From IMG/VR virus record IMGVR_UViG_3300026094_000002: a DNA stretch of 64,000 bases; one strand, written 5' to 3'. The DNA is from a virus (Duplodnaviria > Caudoviricetes). This document shows positions 18,782 to 31,706 of the stretch, one piece after another. The notes beneath the pieces are model-generated. The model was not told where the DNA came from and did no database searches. It saw only the letters and a program-made list of their open reading frames with translations. The translations under genes were made by a program, and so were the position numbers. The number at the start of each line of letters is the position of its first letter. The first letter of the stretch is position 1.

Positions 18782-19336
18782 TTATTGATCAGCACGATAG
18801 AACACATGCTCGCCAATTTGGCCGATGTACTGAAATGATAAGTTCCATGATGGATTAACATAGGCTGCATGATAATGTGTTGAACCTTCAGTTATTCCAC
18901 GAAATGTTTTATTTTTTAGAATTTGATAAGCAATAGTTTGTGCATTTCTCCACGATTCCCGATCTTTTGGATCGTCACTCTTGCCATCACAGAACCAAGA
19001 AAATTGGCAACGGTGTTTAACAGGTACTTCTTTTCCAGTGTTTTCAAGGTGCCACTCAGAGACTGGTCCTTGTTGTACAACATCACAGATATTATTTGGC
19101 CACCGCGTATCACGAACACGATTAAGTACAACATCTGCAACCGCAAATTGTCCTGCTGTCATGTCAGAACGTGCTTCAAAATAAATGTTTTTTGCAAGGC
19201 AGCGAATCTGCTCGTGACTTTCATCAATCTCCCAATCGGTGTCATTAACCAATGTATCACTATTGGCAGAGAATGCAGAAATCCAGAATCCCATTGCAAT
19301 TACTACTGCAAAAAATGTTTTCATAATAAAAATCAT
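18782..19336 (-). CDS. SleB-like cell wall hydrolase (Hydrolase_2)
   Basis: CLAKNIYFEAR, V.DVVLNRV, CQFSWFCDG, GSTHYHA, IGEHVFY. Confidence 0.9.
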   Translation of the reverse strand: MIFIMKTFFAVVIAMGFWISAFSANSDTLVNDTDWEIDESHEQIRCLAKNIYFEARSDMTAGQFAVADVVLNRVRDTRWPNNICDVVQQGPVSEWHLENTGKEVPVKHRCQFSWFCDGKSDDPKDRESWRNAQTIAYQILKNKTFRGITEGSTHYHAAYVNPSWNLSFQYIGQIGEHVFYRADQ

Positions 19337-19837: not shown

Positions 19838-20623
19838 ATGCAAGAAGTGATTAAGATAGAATTTCGTGAGCGGTGTGCACTTTTTGCACGTATGAGTTCA
19901 ATTGTATATCACGATGTTGATAATGTGGTTAATAAATTAGAAAATACTGAATTTCGGTTAATGAATTCATATGATACCGATGGCTCTCAAGCATTTAGTT
20001 TTATATCTGAAACTGATTTAATTGTTGCGTGTAGAGGAACAGAGCCCGATTGTTGGGCTGATTTAAAAGCCGACCTGCGTGCTTGGCCTAAAAAGTCGTC
20101 ATCTGGTGGTCGAGTTCATAGTGGATTTTCGTGGCACGTATCAAAGATTTGGCCGCAAATTGTTGCTGATTTAGAAACTGCAAAAGCACAGGGCCTAAAT
20201 GTTTGGTTTACTGGTCATTCATTAGGTGGTGCAATGGCAACAATTTTAGCGTCTCGTTGCCGACACGATGAGACACTTCCTGATCCAGTTCAACTCTACA
20301 CTTTCGGTTCTCCAAGAGTAGGATGGCCGAAGTATGTTGATTCTCTTGCTATCAACCATGTGCGATGGGTTAATAATAATGACGCGGTTGCATACTTACC
20401 GCCCCGCATAATGGGATACAAACACCATGGATTTGAATATTATTTGAATGCTTGGGGAAATGTTCGTTCTCCCACATTGTGGCAACGAATTAAAGACAAG
20501 TTTCGTGGTTATTGGTTCGCATGGAAGCAAGGAAAAATTGATTCATTTTCTGATCACAGTATCTCAGATTATGTAAAACATCTTGAGAGACATGCCGAAG
20601 GTTTAGAAGTATTACAAAGATAG
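19838..20623 (+). CDS. class 3 lipase (alpha/beta hydrolase)
   Basis: CRGTE, VHSGF, TGHSLGGA nucleophile elbow, TFGSPRVG, NNDAV, DH. Confidence 0.9.
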   Translation: MQEVIKIEFRERCALFARMSSIVYHDVDNVVNKLENTEFRLMNSYDTDGSQAFSFISETDLIVACRGTEPDCWADLKADLRAWPKKSSSGGRVHSGFSWHVSKIWPQIVADLETAKAQGLNVWFTGHSLGGAMATILASRCRHDETLPDPVQLYTFGSPRVGWPKYVDSLAINHVRWVNNNDAVAYLPPRIMGYKHHGFEYYLNAWGNVRSPTLWQRIKDKFRGYWFAWKQGKIDSFSDHSISDYVKHLERHAEGLEVLQR

Positions 20624-20627
20624 TACT

Positions 20628-22193
20628 TTAATCAATTCTTGGCGGTACTGTAAATGTGTGTGCTGGTGCAGGTGATGGTACTTCCCACTCTAGACCGTCC
20701 GCCCCTTCCCACGCTCTTGCATCTGCATTATTTTTGCCTCGGATACATTGCCATACTATAGCAAGAAACAATAGTTGGGTAAGACCGAATCCAAATCCAC
20801 CTATTGAACTAATCATATTCCAATCTGCAAACTGAACAGAATAGTCTGGTATGCGTCTTGGCATTCCTGCTAATCCTAAAAAATGTTGAGGGAAGAACAG
20901 TACATTCACAAATATTGTGCTGAGCCAAAAGTGCCACTGACCCAGTCTTTCTGAATAACGAGTGCCCGACCACTTTGGGAGCCAGTAATATGCCGCCGCT
21001 AATATTGCGAATACCGCTCCAGTTACCAAGACATAGTGAAAGTGTGCTACAACGAAATAGGTATCATGATACTGAAAATCTGCAGGAGCAATTGCTAGCA
21101 TTAAGCCAGAGAATCCACCTATTGTAAACAAGAATACAAATGCAAGAGCGAATAGCATTGGTGTTTCAAATGTCATAGCACCACGCCACATTGTGGCAAC
21201 CCAATTAAAGACTTTCACTCCAGTGGGAACTGATATCAACATTGTGGCATACATGAAGAAAAGTGTTCCTGCGAGCGGCATTCCTACAGTAAACATATGA
21301 TGTGCCCACACAATAAATGACAGGAACGCAATACTAGCAGTAGCATAAACCATTGAACTATATCCAAACAGTGGCTTACGAGCAAATGTAGGCAATATTG
21401 TAGATATAATACCAAATGCTGGCAGTATCATAATATAGACTTCTGGATGACCAAAAAACCAAAATATATGCTGATAAAGAACTGGGTCACCACCACCGGC
21501 TGCAGAGAAAAATGAAGTACCAAAGTACTGGTCGGTTAATAGCATTGTCACAGCACCAGACAGCACAGGCATAACAGCAATCATAAGATATGCAGTTACC
21601 AACCAAGTCCATGTAAAGATAGGCATCTTCATGAGAGTCATTCCGGGTGCTCTCATGTTTAATATGGTAGCCACAATATTAATTGAACCCATAATTGATG
21701 AAATGCCTAAAATGTGTATTGAGAATATAACAAATGGAAATGCCATGCCTGTTTGTAACATAAGGGGAGGATACATTGTCCATCCTCCCGCAGGACCACC
21801 GCCGGGCATGAATAGTGTTGAAAGTAGTACGGCAAACGCAAATGGCATTAGCCAGAAACTCCAGTTATTCATCCGGGGTAGGGCCATATCAGGTGCCCCT
21901 ATTTGCATGGGTATCATCCAGTTTGCTAAGCCAGTAAATGCTGGCATTACCGCACCAAAAATCATCACAAGAGCGTGCATAGTGGTCATTTGATTATAGA
22001 ATAATGGATCAACCAATTGCATACCGGGCATAAAAAGTTCTGCTCTTATGACCATTGCCATTGCACCACCAACAAAGAACATCAACAAACTCCACAGTAG
22101 GTACATTGATCCAATCTCTTTGTGGTTTGTAGTGGTTAGCCATCGTTTAATGCCGGTCGGCTCTATGTGTTCTGGTTGTGCTACGGTATCCAT
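20628..22193 (-). CDS. coxA: cytochrome c oxidase subunit I, type A1 (aa3-like)
   Basis: 521 aa uninterrupted; [43 protein letters not shown]. Confidence 0.97.
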
Positions 22194-22196
22194 TGT

Positions 22197-22652
22197 TTAG
22201 ACTCCTACTGGTCCTATAAATTGTTTTAATTCTCGTGCAAGACTCTTCTGCTCGTCTGCGTCTAAAAATTCTGCAAATTCTACTTTATCACTTTTACAGT
22301 GTAAAAATAATCTTGTGTGTTTCCACCTTCTTGGTACATTTTCTAATATTACTTCGCACCATATTTTTTCAAAAGAAATAGAACTTGATTTTGTTTTTCT
22401 TCCTTTTTCTAATGTCACTGTTGTTCGGTCTATATGCAGTACATTTTTCTCAAAACTTTTTTCTGCTGAGTACCATAAACTAGCAGCCACAAGTAAAAAT
22501 TCTGCTCCAGCAAATGGCACTATTAACCACAAGCCCAATTGAAAAAAATATAAAGATATAGAGAATAAAACGATTCCTAACAATGCCAAAAATCTTATTG
22601 ACAACCGCCAATCAGATTGAAATGACGGAGAAATAACATAGGTTTTATTCAT
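22197..22652 (-). CDS. DUF2244-like membrane protein
   Basis: I.P..S..W, two TM helices with GLW.I.PFAG.E, EFAEFL..DE...LA.EL C-terminus. Confidence 0.75.
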   Translation of the reverse strand: MNKTYVISPSFQSDWRLSIRFLALLGIVLFSISLYFFQLGLWLIVPFAGAEFLLVAASLWYSAEKSFEKNVLHIDRTTVTLEKGRKTKSSSISFEKIWCEVILENVPRRWKHTRLFLHCKSDKVEFAEFLDADEQKSLARELKQFIGPVGV

Positions 22653-22715
22653 TACGAACTATTTAGACAATACCATTACTATATCCTAAAATAGAGAGGG
22701 AATAAATACCTCATA

Positions 22716-23375
22716 ATGCTTATTAAAGAATTATTTGAAGCAGACAGAACCTATTCTGGAGACCCACTTGAAAAAGGTGGCACATCTATTAAAGGACAAG
22801 GTGCTGCTCCAGTCATCAAAAATCTTGCTGGCAAGGGAATATTCCAAGGTAAAACAGTGCTTGATTATGGTGCCGGAAAGTATGGCAGAAATGCAGAAGC
22901 AATCAAAGCAGCCGGTGGAACTGTCTATGCCTATGACCCATTTCACGGCAGTGGCTCTGATGGTTGGAATAGTGTTGCAGGAACACTTCCAGATAATAAA
23001 TTTGACATTGCATTTACCAGTTATGTTTTAAATGTGGTTCCAGAAAAAACCGAAGACCAAATATTGCGTGATGTAGAATCTCGCTCTAATAATATTTTAC
23101 ACATTACAAGAAATATGGATATATTTCAATCAGTTAAGAAAGCATTAATAAGAAAGGATAGTACGGTTGGCAATTTCTTTTTAGAACAGTTTGCCAATGA
23201 ACAAGAACGCGAGGCATTTGAAGAAGGTACGCTTAATGATGAAACTATATTAGAGTTTTGCAAACACGGTGTCCAGACTTCACGTGGTTTTCAGCGAATA
23301 CCAGAACTTGAAAATAAGGGATATAATTTAAAACAAAATACAGTTGGTTATAAACTTTATACTAGAGGAATGTAA
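22716..23375 (+). CDS. SAM-dependent methyltransferase (possibly DNA adenine)
   Basis: VLDYGAGKYGRN motif I, YDPF, SYVLNVV motif-IV-like. Confidence 0.7.
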   Translation: MLIKELFEADRTYSGDPLEKGGTSIKGQGAAPVIKNLAGKGIFQGKTVLDYGAGKYGRNAEAIKAAGGTVYAYDPFHGSGSDGWNSVAGTLPDNKFDIAFTSYVLNVVPEKTEDQILRDVESRSNNILHITRNMDIFQSVKKALIRKDSTVGNFFLEQFANEQEREAFEEGTLNDETILEFCKHGVQTSRGFQRIPELENKGYNLKQNTVGYKLYTRGM

Positions 23376-23380
23376 ATAAA

Positions 23381-24550
23381 TTAGTAAATTTTGAGAAGAC
23401 TGTTTAATTCAGGATGAGAATCAACTAATTTTTCTTCACGAAATAAATCTATTCTTTTAATTTCAGATTTTAATTCATTAAAATAATCAAAATTAGATTC
23501 ACCATCATTCATAAATTTAATAATATTATTAATATCATCGGTATCGTGAGGTAACAAGGCTTCTTCAATTTTTTCTTTTATGTCTTGCGGCAGATACTTG
23601 ACACAAAATCGTTCTTCAACAATTAACATACTCCAATTAATATGCATTAGGGGATAATGTTCTTTCATCCATCTTATAATTTTTTTAAAGTCTAATATAT
23701 TAAAAACGCTGACAGTCATATTACATGATAATGAGATATTTGTATTTTTATTAGCCAACTGCTCAAATGCATCCAAGTTTTTAACTAATGTATTCCAATC
23801 AGATTTTGATCTTTCATATTCAAATTTTTCAAAGATATTATCTATACTAACCATTATATCAACACTTTTGAATTTTTTCCAACTTTCAATAATATCTTTA
23901 TTTGGTAATATTGTTCCATTAGTAACATAGTCTATTTCAATATTTGAAACATCGCTAGTATTTGAAAATTTTTCAAGTAGTTGAAAGTGCTGATTTATCA
24001 GGAACGGTTCACCACCATAAAAACTTATTTTGGATAATAATGGAAGGTAATTTTCTAAATCCTCCCAAAATACTTTTGATGTTATAGGCCATTGTCCTTT
24101 TTTAAGAATTTCAAATTCAAACGAACTGCGTTTTTCTTCATCAGAATGGGTTTTTAATTCATTTTTTGCCCAGATACTACTTGCCCACGGCCCACATATT
24201 CGACACCGCAAATTGCATATGTTTCCAAATGCAATTGATAAACTGCTAAATTGACTTTGAACATCACCATTAAAATCAGTTTCTTTTTGCCTCAAACTCA
24301 TAATACCATTATCTTCTTCTTGCCAGCATTGAGCACAGGAAATAGGTTTTTTATTGTTTGATAAATCAGAGCGTAATTTTTTTAGATGATTGCTATTATA
24401 AATCTCATAAAAAGAATTTTTATTAACATTAAATTCTAAATTGTTTTTATCTTTAAGCCTATCACCCCAAATACAACATGGTGCTACACTACCATCCGCA
24501 TTAATTTCTAAGTTTTTCCATGGCTTACTACAAAAAGTTTCAGACAACAT
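23381..24550 (-). CDS. radical SAM protein with SPASM/twitch-like domain
   Basis: CNLRCRIC, GGEPF, TNGT; N-terminal C..PW...G.V.PCC and C..CW..E. Confidence 0.88.
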   Translation of the reverse strand: MLSETFCSKPWKNLEINADGSVAPCCIWGDRLKDKNNLEFNVNKNSFYEIYNSNHLKKLRSDLSNNKKPISCAQCWQEEDNGIMSLRQKETDFNGDVQSQFSSLSIAFGNICNLRCRICGPWASSIWAKNELKTHSDEEKRSSFEFEILKKGQWPITSKVFWEDLENYLPLLSKISFYGGEPFLINQHFQLLEKFSNTSDVSNIEIDYVTNGTILPNKDIIESWKKFKSVDIMVSIDNIFEKFEYERSKSDWNTLVKNLDAFEQLANKNTNISLSCNMTVSVFNILDFKKIIRWMKEHYPLMHINWSMLIVEERFCVKYLPQDIKEKIEEALLPHDTDDINNIIKFMNDGESNFDYFNELKSEIKRIDLFREEKLVDSHPELNSLLKIY

Positions 24551-28758: not shown

Positions 28759-30433
28759 TGTTGATTTCGGGACAATCAGACTCTATAACCGATAGATAAG
28801 ACTCAAGTAGTCCTTGATTATAATCATCTAACAGCATATTAAAATGATCCTGAGCAATTTGCTCAGGATCCCAGCCTGTTACTGTGTCATAAGTAACAGA
28901 TGGTTTTCTATTAATCACTGACCGTCAAGTGCCTTTTGTGCAAAATAAACTGCATCTTCTGTTTCCGGATGCTTGTGAATCATTACGGCACCATTGCGGA
29001 GAAACCACCGAAGATTTTCTGGCGTCGCCGTCTTTCGGTTATCTGGAATCTCAGCAAACCGACTGATCATTGTTTCCCATCGTCGTTCTGATTTTGTCTT
29101 TTCTTTTTGCATCCGAGTCTCCTTACTGGGAGTGTATTTACTTTTGTGGGTTGTTTGATATAAGATTAGTTGGTCAATGCTGCATCTTCAGTTACAGCAA
29201 GTTCCCACTCAATATCTCGCTTCTTGGCTTCAAGATCATAAACTTTTCGCTCAAGGTCTTGAATCTCAGCATTAATCCGGTCACGCTCGTTCCTAAGATT
29301 TTCAATAGTCATTTTAGTTTCCTCTTTAATTTAACGATTACACATTTAAATAAAGTGACTTAATGTCACCACATTTCCATTTTCATTTCATAATCAATAG
29401 CGGCATCATTACTATCATAATCACGAATAGAAGTTGGCTGCATTGCACCCAAATCTCCTGTCATCTCGTCCCTAATCTGCCAAAGCATCTTTAGGGCTTC
29501 TTCATCTTCACCACTCCCATTAGAGAGATCTGATGGATCATCTTTCATACCCAACTCAAGAAGTTGCAGCACTTCTGTTTCGTACTCTACAGATTCTACT
29601 TGACGACCAATCGGGCCACACCATACTTCATTGTTAAGAACCCGATACGCCAAAGCATCTACTGCATAGTCAACTTCTTTACTGTAATTTGGAAAGCAGA
29701 AGTATTGTGGCAAAACTTCTTCAATCTTTCGCATATACTCGCCAATAATATCTTCAATTTCATCTGGTTTTTCGTAATCCCGAAATGCCATTGTATTTTC
29801 CTCGTTGACAGTTGCAGTCTAAGCAGCAACCTTTGTATGATTGTGGGCAAGAACAATACTTGCACGACCGGCAGTATAACAGTTATAACTTCGGACAGGA
29901 GAGTACTTCTGTGGCTTTCCCTCTACAATTTCTACTGTTTCTCCACGCTCTTTCTTGGTGCGAAGGAAAAGAGAAAGATCACAATCTTCTTCCAAGTATG
30001 CAGTCTTGCCCTTGATGTACGAAAACTGAGAAATCTTGTATTCAATGCCCAAGCGATATAGTTCTGCGACTTTTACTGCGAGCCAACCATGTCCTGCGTC
30101 ACTGTGAAACTTGTAAGCCATGTCTATGTCTCTTTTTGCCTAAAGTGTGAATGTATTATAGAAGACTATGATGCAGTCTGTCAAGAAAAAATATTATCTA
30201 TTTTATAAGGAAAAAAGAGTTTCGTCTGTCTTACCCGCATTCCAGCGATCTACTGCGTCTTGCTTGCTGGAGCCATAAACGATTCTGCCACAACCAGTGT
30301 TATGAATTTGACAAACCACATTCCATTCTGTGAAATCGCCGGTGGAATGATCACGCTTACTGGGATAAAGGGTGTCAATCAGTTCCCAATTTGCATTCCA
30401 ATCTTTACCACATTTGATGCAAGGGTCAATCAT
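28733..30433 (-). other. small early ORFs: 28733-28918, 28915-29112, 29166-29312 (manual), 29366-29791, 29819-30121, 30203-30433
   Basis: Each has a GAGG/GGAG-type RBS or coupling; TTGACA promoter near 30185. Confidence 0.55.
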
Positions 30434-31706
30434 TTTTTATTTCCTCTAATGCATCAGCAAACTGATCCACTGCCCATTCAATTTGATCTTCTGTGACAAT
30501 GAGTGGTGGAATCCAGCGAATAACATTGCCACCCCAAGGGCCACACTTGATCATGATTAACCCTTTATGCTCAAGAATTTTCAGCATCTTAGCTGCTCTT
30601 TCACCACCGGTCATAATATCTGTATCCGCAAGGTGAGTTCCAATCATTAGACCTTTGCCAGTTACAGCAACAATTTCTGGGTGCCTACGCTGCAAGAACA
30701 GCAATTTTTCTTTTAGTTTAGCACCCATCTTGGCAGCGTTTTCTACTAAGTTTTCGTCACGAATAACATCCAGAGTGGCTAATCCTGCAGCACAAGCCAC
30801 TGCATTACCACCATATGTGCCACCTTGAGATCCCGGAAAGGCTTTGTTCATAAGTTCTCGTGGTGCAGCCATGAATGATAACTGAAAGCCGCTTGCAACA
30901 CCTTTAGCAGATACCACCACATCGGGCGTAACATTATAGTGTTCAAAACCCCACATTTTACCAGTTCTGCCATTACCTGCCTGTACTTCGTCCATGATCA
31001 GCAAAATGCCGTGTTTTTTACAACGCTCTTCCAGTCCCTGCATGAAACGCTTGCTTGCAGTGATATATCCTGCTTCTCCCTGAATGCTTTCTATCAGCAT
31101 TGCAGCAGTTTCCATAGGCACACTCTGCACCTGCAGGATATAATCAAGTTCACGCAAACAGAAGTCTGCAGCCTCATCCTCTGTCATATTATACCAATTA
31201 GTGTCGGGGAAAGGTGCCGTTACAACGCCACCCATCATAGGCTGCACACCCTGACGAACAGCAGCACTCGAGGTAGTTGTGCTTAGACTTCCCATAGTCC
31301 TACCGTGGAAGCAGCCACGGAAAGCAATAATATTTGGCTTGCCGGTTGCCTGTCGTGCCAGTCGGATTGATGCTTCCACTGCCTCTGTTCCTGCACTTGA
31401 AAAGAATACAGAATTTATAGAATCAGGCAATAATTCACAAATTCGATCTGACAATTCTAAAATAGGGCGATGCTTCATAATAGCATACTGGGCATGCACT
31501 ACTTTATCAATCTGATCCTTTGCAGCCTCAATAACTTTTGGGTGAGAATGCCCTGTGCTTAAAACGCCAATTCCCGAAGAAAAATCCATATATCCCTTGC
31601 CATCTTCTCCCCATACATACATGCCTTCAGCATGATCTACAACAACGTCAGATGTTTGGCGTAGCAGTGGGGAAAGATGATGTTCGTGTTCGCTTGTGTT
31701 TTGCAT
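30426..31706 (-). CDS. class III PLP aminotransferase (4-aminobutyrate aminotransferase-like)
   Basis: DFSSGIGV, SAGTEAVE, FHGRT, ESIQGEAG, DEVQAG.GRTG, SAKG (PLP Lys), GTYGGN. Confidence 0.92.
   Translation of the reverse strand: MQNTSEHEHHLSPLLRQTSDVVVDHAEGMYVWGEDGKGYMDFSSGIGVLSTGHSHPKVIEAAKDQIDKVVHAQYAIMKHRPILELSDRICELLPDSINSVFFSSAGTEAVEASIRLARQATGKPNIIAFRGCFHGRTMGSLSTTTSSAAVRQGVQPMMGGVVTAPFPDTNWYNMTEDEAADFCLRELDYILQVQSVPMETAAMLIESIQGEAGYITASKRFMQGLEERCKKHGILLIMDEVQAGNGRTGKMWGFEHYNVTPDVVVSAKGVASGFQLSFMAAPRELMNKAFPGSQGGTYGGNAVACAAGLATLDVIRDENLVENAAKMGAKLKEKLLFLQRRHPEIVAVTGKGLMIGTHLADTDIMTGGERAAKMLKILEHKGLIMIKCGPWGGNVIRWIPPLIVTEDQIEWAVDQFADALEEIKND

Follow-up and report, generated by a model that had tools for sequence, protein, structure and literature searches.

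Directly behind a DUF2244 gene, the phage record IMGVR_UViG_3300026094_000002 from IMG/VR carries coxA, encoding subunit I of an aa3-type cytochrome c oxidase, which raises the question of what DUF2244 does beside a lone oxidase subunit. The record comprises 194,522 bp with a G+C content of 36.7% and a CheckV completeness of 56%, and it is a virus record that includes tRNAs and a baseplate gene. The window referred to below is the stretch of 64,000 nt of this record that was analyzed. The question extends beyond one phage, as DUF2244 is a family without assigned function that occurs in approximately 28% of sampled Pseudomonadota genomes (85/301). No experiments on, or function for, any DUF2244 protein were found in the literature. 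The original prediction was that the phage had kept only these two genes and that DUF2244 is an insertion or assembly factor of subunit I. An action on subunit I gained independent support in our analysis, and we regard this interpretation as partly supported. With a probability of about one half, DUF2244 would be an early-acting chaperone or stabilizer of new oxidase subunit I, co-expressed with the phage CoxA for a hybrid aa3 oxidase late in infection.

Genomic features of the DUF2244-coxA locus

The ORF ahead of coxA matches the DUF2244 profile with an E-value of 6.8e-25 and 87.9 bits (cut-off 27). The match covers the whole domain (profile positions 9-136 of 138), and the protein has two predicted N-terminal transmembrane helices with the TM2 motif, followed by a soluble domain, which bears out its assignment to the family. 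PF10003 is the only Pfam family matched, NCBIfam returned nothing, and the models of CtaG/Cox11, Surf1, Sco and CtaA/B do not match the ORF. The family-conserved residues P9, W15, G40, W42, P46-F47-x-G49-x-E51, G84 and L130 are all retained in the phage protein. In the transmembrane part of DUF2244, the sole conserved polar feature is an acidic residue that follows P-F-x-G in TM2, and the protein has no obvious metal- or haem-binding motif. The phage CoxA matches the CtaD_CoxA equivalog model over its full length (positions 1-503 of 504; 698.8 bits, cut-off 670.75) and shares 87-89% amino acid identity with CoxA of Spiribacter.

The junction of the two genes, read directly on the minus strand, is GGAGTC-TAA-ACA-ATG, with the two genes in the same frame and the 3-nt gap that had first been noted. 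The Shine-Dalgarno sequence of coxA lies inside the end of DUF2244, suggesting that translation of coxA may be coupled to that of DUF2244. Read-through of the TAA stop would give a DUF2244-CoxA fusion. This in-frame arrangement is probably incidental, since a 1-nt gap is found instead in close relatives.

Genes for subunits II and III and for CtaG had been reported missing from the window, and the same holds for the rest of the record: models of COX2, COX3 and CtaG/Cox11 found no match in the 194,522 bp. The coxB and coxC genes could lie in the missing part of this ~56%-complete record. When 111 ORFs from seven bacterial cox clusters were compared with the phage, homologues were present for DUF2244 and CoxA alone. 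The features of the locus are listed in Table 1.

Table 1. Positions of features at the DUF2244-coxA locus and in related phage contigs
Feature	Sequence	Position	Strand	Remarks
Cell-wall hydrolase	window	18782-19336	-	TAAATA 5 nt ahead of ATG
Class-3 lipase	window	19838-20623	+	convergent with coxA, 4 nt between stops; TAAATA 5 nt ahead of ATG
coxA/ctaD, aa3-type cytochrome c oxidase subunit I	window	20628-22193	-	521 aa; TIGR02891
TAA stop, ACA and coxA ATG in one frame	window	22191-22199	-	
DUF2244 gene	window	22197-22652	-	151 aa; Pfam PF10003
GGAG Shine-Dalgarno of coxA	window	22202-22205	-	within last DUF2244 codons (Gly-Val), 8 nt 5' of coxA ATG
Intergenic region	window	22653-22715		63 nt
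CTAAATA box (core TAAATA)	window	22660-22666	-	7 nt 5' of DUF2244 ATG, no Shine-Dalgarno between
Second TAAATA box	window	22703-22708	+	7 nt 5' of ATG of divergent methyltransferase-like gene
Methyltransferase-like gene	window	22716-23375		divergent from DUF2244, on the + strand
Radical SAM/SPASM protein	window	23381-24550	-	
Class-III aminotransferase	window	30426-31706	-	shares 77% identity with its counterpart of the relatives, which lies between DUF2244 and cytochrome b
katG to metallophosphoesterase module	L095	1-6829		same layout in L098
sdhA/frdA-like flavoprotein of G001	L001	510-2279		FAD_binding_2 + Succ_DH_flav_C
Endonuclease III gene of G001	L006	6209-6901		beside the flavoprotein gene
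coxB-coxA-ctaG of G003	L003	3584-6472		
coxB-coxA-ctaG of G004	L004	1-1658		

A conserved TAAATA box ahead of DUF2244

The intergenic region upstream of DUF2244 contains two back-to-back TAAATA boxes, neither followed by a Shine-Dalgarno sequence. The CTAAATA motif described earlier just ahead of DUF2244 is the minus-strand one, and an xTAAATA box is kept 6-9 nt ahead of the DUF2244 ATG in 11/11 loci of the phage clade. In locus L096, it takes the form of the canonical T4 TATAAATA. CTAAATA is depleted in the window (4 copies vs 13 expected). The record has 14 copies, of which 10 lie between genes, sense-oriented and 5-70 nt ahead of an ORF start. TAAATA occurs 47 times in the 60 nt upstream of the 227 ORF starts vs 4.3 expected, with a sharp peak at a distance of 5-8 nt (23 genes). 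The placement of the motif is more than chance. A box resembling TATAAATA that is sense-enriched before gene starts has the properties of a T4-type late promoter, and the best reading of the sequence is that the box acts as such a promoter and would give a leaderless or near-leaderless mRNA. The same box, in the same layout, precedes the gene of a gp6-like baseplate wedge subunit (957 bits), which makes the label "late" plausible.

Related phage loci carry a variable module

A HMMER search against 1.84 billion representative proteins retrieved 839 relatives of the phage DUF2244. They include one phage-type cluster at 61% identity; the next match shows 36% identity. Phage-type DUF2244 proteins fall into fifteen 90%-identity clusters that share 61-98% identity and 49 invariant residues. 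They originate from viral and metagenome contigs, several of whose names suggest brines and salterns.

The gene order behind DUF2244 varies among these phages. The window phage, L092 and L093 have DUF2244 directly followed by coxA. L095 and L098 carry katG (catalase-peroxidase), DUF2244, a class III aminotransferase, cytochrome b (413 aa), coxA and a metallophosphoesterase, and L099-L101 represent cut-off versions of this layout. In L094 (=G001), L096 and L097, DUF2244 is followed by cytochrome b and the contig ends there. The block from katG to the metallophosphoesterase is a respiratory and oxidative-stress island. Its cytochrome b is full-length and has neither Rieske nor cytochrome c1 partners. 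The aminotransferase is found 8 kb away from DUF2244 in the window phage, indicating that the module has been rearranged. Its 418-aa counterpart in the relatives, encoded between DUF2244 and cytochrome b, was also considered as a candidate HemL; it proved to be a class-III aminotransferase of the ArgD/GABA-AT type, with no HemL model among its 25 best NCBIfam matches.

In every phage locus that is long enough (the window, L092, L093, L095 and L098), coxA lies downstream of DUF2244. The expected conservation of the pair was observed in this looser sense, while the aminotransferase or cytochrome b stands directly downstream of DUF2244 in several relatives; DUF2244 is paired with a module, not strictly with coxA. 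The proposal that phages kept only these two genes fits the window phage and its two close relatives L092 and L093. It does not fit the clade members that also carry the aminotransferase, cytochrome b and katG, nor unrelated phage contigs that hold coxB-coxA-ctaG without DUF2244. The latter are the phage-like contigs G003 and G004, which encode PhoH, exonuclease and baseplate-like proteins and have no DUF2244 in the available sequence. Their CoxA is 72-74% identical to that of the window phage, and they represent a second, different way for phages to carry cox genes.

The variable module brings up the possibility that DUF2244 serves haem-bearing membrane proteins in general (cytochrome b, CoxA and perhaps CydA) or haem delivery. 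Cytochrome b follows DUF2244 in six phage loci, directly or past the aminotransferase, another haem enzyme (KatG) is encoded upstream in relatives, and NOX2, the client of the structurally similar protein EROS (see below), is a di-haem b protein. However, cytochrome b lies beside DUF2244 in no bacterial locus examined, the cytochrome b gene of Spiribacter is located on a separate contig, and the window phage has DUF2244 with neither cytochrome b nor katG in its 194,522-bp record. We regard such a general role as decidedly unlikely.

G001 is phage-like, with ribonucleotide reductase, exonuclease and structural proteins. It also carries a lone sdhA/frdA-like flavoprotein gene, beside which no iron-sulfur or membrane subunits were recognized. 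An "sdhCDAB operon" initially suspected in this contig was rejected, as the sdhA/frdA-like gene stands alone and its 230-aa neighbour is endonuclease III. Larger, distant relatives retrieved via the baseplate wedge protein (57-58% identity) lack both coxA and DUF2244; among them are a complete genome of 328 kb and one of 316 kb that is 91% complete. No DUF2244 was found in GenBank phages. GenBank phage matches to CoxA are below 47% identity. Two carry a cyoB annotation; all others come from records without annotation, several of them just 2-17 kb in length. These matches are probably host-derived quinol oxidase genes.

Origin and selection of the phage genes

A quick maximum-likelihood tree unites the 11 phage DUF2244 proteins in a single clade (SH-aLRT 100). 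This clade has a long stem and joins Spiribacter and Arhodomonas (98), pointing to a single origin beside this host clade. The same genera provide the closest relatives of the phage CoxA and of the phage cytochrome b, which shares 87-88% identity with that of Spiribacter. Since the Spiribacter cytochrome b gene is not on the contig of the cox genes, the phages have brought together, behind DUF2244, single core subunits taken from separate host operons. GC3 values of the phage DUF2244 and coxA are 0.22 and 0.36, compared with 0.5-0.9 in the closest bacteria. Such phage-like values indicate old, ameliorated genes and argue against contamination or recent pick-up. The genes are host-derived, ameliorated, under selection and located in a real phage genome, as is characteristic of phage auxiliary metabolic genes.

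Phage and Spiribacter proteins are 88% identical in CoxA and 33-35% identical in DUF2244. The latter value is at the low end of the bacterial range, as the DUF2244 identity of bacterial pairs whose CoxA is 85-90% identical has a median of 44% (range 32-72%). DUF2244 evolves fast everywhere. The window phage and L092 share 99% identity in DUF2244 and 92% in CoxA, and L092 and L093 share 81% and 97%, respectively. These mosaic identities suggest recombination between DUF2244 and coxA among co-occurring phages.

Among the phage copies, the dN/dS of DUF2244 ranges from 0.06 to 0.19, indicating purifying selection. This bears on the idea that the DUF2244 ORF is mainly an expression device, a promoter-proximal leader cistron for coupled translation whose protein is dispensable. 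A G-rich DUF2244 ending (GGAGT or GGAAT) that provides the downstream Shine-Dalgarno sequence indeed lies 5-10 nt before the next ATG in all phage loci, whichever gene follows, and the gaps are only 1-5 nt. The low dN/dS and the invariant residues of the 15 phage clusters, which include the family-wide TM2 motifs, speak against a dispensable protein and render this idea highly improbable.

Gene neighbourhoods of DUF2244 in Pseudomonadota

The best 80 species-level bacterial loci, headed by two Spiribacter genomes and one Arhodomonas, were examined for their neighbourhoods. Approximately 69 of these 80 closest loci show the order DUF2244-coxB-coxA(-ctaG) on a single strand, and the same DUF2244-coxB-coxA order was found in most of the bacterial metagenome loci L102-L120. 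As the best-80 set over-represents Gammaproteobacteria, 301 Pseudomonadota genomes were additionally sampled evenly. DUF2244 was detected in 85 of them (84 with one match and one with two), and neighbourhoods were scored with 5-kb flanks in 80 loci (L151-L230). DUF2244-coxB-coxA was found in 11/80 loci. In 13/80, DUF2244 comes after a lone ctaD-like gene of the same strand, and the 5-kb flanks contain no coxB. In 39/80, DUF2244 lies divergently beside endonuclease III (nth), and the remaining 17/80 have none of these three neighbourhoods. The spacing between DUF2244 and nth is ~30-260 nt, and this conserved neighbourhood has no obvious respiratory link. CtaB was also tried as a neighbour of gammaproteobacterial DUF2244 genes away from cox; a UbiA-family protein was present in 1/10 tested, and the others were unrelated.

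The two cox-linked classes (11/80 and 13/80) indicate that the linkage to subunit I is real and exists in two gene orders, one of them without subunit II, and that it is not universal. The view that DUF2244 genes often lie next to proteobacterial cox operons is accurate for many members (~69/80 of the closest loci and 24/80 in the even sample), while ~70% of the evenly sampled loci are found elsewhere. Oxidase subunit I (E<=1e-100) is encoded by 85/85 genomes with DUF2244 vs 132/216 genomes without it (Fisher p 3e-15, uncorrected for phylogeny). A further candidate for a cox-linked DUF2244 gene is PA0104 of Pseudomonas aeruginosa, a hypothetical gene that a preprint places ahead of coxBA; its transposon phenotype was ascribed there to effects on cox expression.

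These neighbourhoods also bear on an alternative in which DUF2244 works in the membrane apart from oxidase biogenesis. It might use its PH-like domain to sense lipids or the state of the envelope, or have a phage-specific task, and would owe its cox neighbourhood only to descent from the host. Proteins with PH-like folds serve many different functions. Of the 80 evenly sampled loci, 56 (~70%) have no cox gene within 5 kb, including those beside nth, and in phage relatives an aminotransferase and katG belong to the same block. Against this, two independent gene orders tie DUF2244 to subunit I, none of the 85 genomes with DUF2244 lacks oxidase subunit I, and the phage has dropped coxB, which lies between both genes in the host, and has retained DUF2244 under strong purifying selection. 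We consider a role apart from the oxidase unlikely.

Predicted structure of DUF2244

The AF2 model of the phage DUF2244, built from a 60-sequence alignment, has a mean pLDDT of 91.8. It consists of a strand (residues 3-7), two helices (12-38 and 44-66), six strands and a terminal helix (132-146). DUF2244 is thus predicted to sit in the inner membrane, with an N-terminal strand that leads into a transmembrane hairpin, a PH-like beta sandwich on the cytoplasmic side and a helix at the C terminus. In structural alignments, ordinary PH and PTB domains cover residues 1-7 and 68-151 and leave out the hairpin, which indicates that a transmembrane hairpin interrupts the PH domain behind its first strand.

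A structure search against 48,161 PDB representatives gave EROS/CYBC1 from the NOX2-p22phox-EROS complex (8kei_D) as the top match of the phage model (Z 8.7, 134 aligned residues, rmsd 3.4). No other match reached Z>=8, and no other one extended over the hairpin as well as the PH domain. Foldseek gave a TM score of 0.55 for the same chain. A separate AF2 model (pLDDT 93.4) was made for a distant bacterial member, which is ~25% identical and belongs to the class in which ctaD precedes DUF2244. Its top match is also 8kei_D (144 aligned residues, rmsd 5.1), again the only whole-length match, with Z 9.7. Scores in this range (8.7-9.7) exceed the usual background of structure searches only moderately. 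The hairpin-interrupted PH domain, a trait of the EROS/CYBC1-Ycf4 family, is present in both models.

A PDB profile search and a Pfam scan revealed no sequence-level link between DUF2244 and EROS, Ycf4 or the PH families of bacteria. The DUF2244 profile matched no PDB chain at E<=10, and the Pfam scan of 60 DUF2244 members gave chance-level matches, with Ycf4 and CYBC1 absent among the 25 most frequent families. A search of the ESM Atlas yielded only the DUF2244 family itself.

Instead of assisting assembly only transiently, DUF2244 could be a stoichiometric component of the mature oxidase with an accessory or regulatory role, similar to subunit IV or a supercomplex tether, with which the phage CoxA has co-evolved. 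The synteny and phyletic evidence supports such a subunit to the same extent as a chaperone, and the long phage stem and the fast evolution of DUF2244 would fit co-adaptation with a partner. EROS can likewise remain on haem-loaded NOX2-p22phox. On the other hand, most DUF2244 members are unlinked to cox genes, and the negative PDB profile search means that no solved oxidase has a DUF2244-type subunit. An accessory subunit is in our view not a likely explanation.

Proposed role in subunit I biogenesis

Three lines of evidence support an action of DUF2244 on subunit I: the lone ctaD-DUF2244 pairs in bacteria, the presence of subunit I in every genome with DUF2244, and the EROS-like fold. A physical binding of DUF2244 to CoxA, the timing of its expression and an effect on assembly are inferred. 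The phage would have obtained a two-gene auxiliary metabolic unit, subunit I and its dedicated helper DUF2244, from a Spiribacter-like (Ectothiorhodospiraceae) host lineage. One near-leaderless bicistronic mRNA would be transcribed from the T4-late-type TAAATA box, and coxA would be translated by coupling via the Shine-Dalgarno sequence inside the end of DUF2244. The hairpin of DUF2244 may then pack on the transmembrane helices of nascent CoxA, with the PH domain capping its cytoplasmic face. In this way, apo-subunit I would be kept stable and cofactor-ready up to the point at which host factors provide it with haem a and CuB and the host CoxB and CoxC join. The outcome would be a hybrid phage-host oxidase that sustains respiration late in infection. 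In relatives with cytochrome b in the module, DUF2244 may serve that di-haem subunit too.

The strongest objections to DUF2244 as a chaperone of subunit I are the many members unlinked to cox genes, the phages that carry coxB-coxA-ctaG without DUF2244, the ~56% completeness of the record and the purely computational basis of the analysis.

The window phage represents a natural minimal experiment, in which only subunit I and DUF2244 have been retained from the whole cox cluster. This minimal pair and the EROS-like fold lead to a concrete chaperone hypothesis for the family, which can be tested by standard genetics and biochemistry. It bears on a poorly understood step, the holding of bacterial subunit I before insertion of haem a and CuB. 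If the hypothesis is true, bacterial oxidase biogenesis would be tied to the chaperones Ycf4 of plants and EROS of animals. The supply of a core subunit together with its helper by a phage would also be extended from photosynthesis (psbA with hli) to aerobic respiration and to hypersaline systems. A broader and more tentative possibility is that DUF2244, Ycf4 and EROS form one ancient class of hairpin-in-PH chaperones, each serving the cofactor-loaded core of one redox complex, namely haem-copper oxidase, photosystem I and NADPH oxidase. The bacterial branch of this class would be used by jumbo phages of halophiles to install their own CoxA, and in some cases their own cytochrome b, in host complexes. 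The proposal of a PHb domain in DUF2244 was already known (PMC2817789). New are the synteny counts for both gene orders, the finding that sampled genomes with DUF2244 always encode subunit I, the variable module in which phages combine DUF2244 with cytochrome b, and a predicted split PH domain that resembles EROS.

Comparison with known systems

Several known bacterial aa3 assembly factors, including CtaG/Cox11, Surf1, Sco/PCuAC and CtaA/CtaB, act on subunits I and II before the oxidase is completed. DUF2244 resembles them in being encoded within or next to cox operons, and differs in that it matches none of the models of CtaG/Cox11, Surf1, Sco and CtaA/B.

DUF2244 has been proposed as a possible membrane-anchored PHb domain without strand beta-1, and no function was proposed (Xu et al., 2010; PMC2817789). 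The relationship to bacterial PHb domains (DUF1696, DUF304, DUF1200) is reflected in our models, to which the Shewanella PHb structure 3hsa aligns at Z 6.2-6.5. Unlike in that proposal, the models place beta-1 ahead of the hairpin, giving a split PH domain.

The closest structural parallel is EROS, in which a transmembrane hairpin is inserted in a PH domain and which is similar in sequence to the photosystem I assembly factor Ycf4 (PMC9767466, PMC11161758, PMC5379978). EROS binds the immature 58-kDa NOX2 ahead of haem incorporation and shields newly made NOX2 from degradation, and it can stay on haem-loaded NOX2-p22phox (PMC9767466, PMC11161758, PMC5379978). EROS/CYBC1 and the DUF2244 models share a rare architecture, in which the first beta strand leads into a two-helix hairpin, the rest of the PH domain follows in the cytoplasm and a helix closes the chain. 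Both termini are cytoplasmic. The likeness lies in the predicted fold; the PDB profile search and the Pfam scan detected no similarity in sequence. EROS, Ycf4 and DUF2244 are each linked genetically to a redox complex, namely to its membrane core, which is rich in cofactors. The proposed client of DUF2244, however, is a 12-helix haem-copper oxidase subunit and not NOX2 or PsaA/B.

Among phages, the nearest analogue is the combination of psbA and hli in cyanophages. In both cases, the phage carries the gene for a fast-turnover core subunit of a host energy complex together with that for a small membrane helper, and the host supplies the other subunits. In contrast to psbA (D1 of the photosystem II core) and hli, the DUF2244-coxA unit concerns respiration, involves a helper from an uncharacterized family and a halophilic heterotrophic host, and is known here from its genes.
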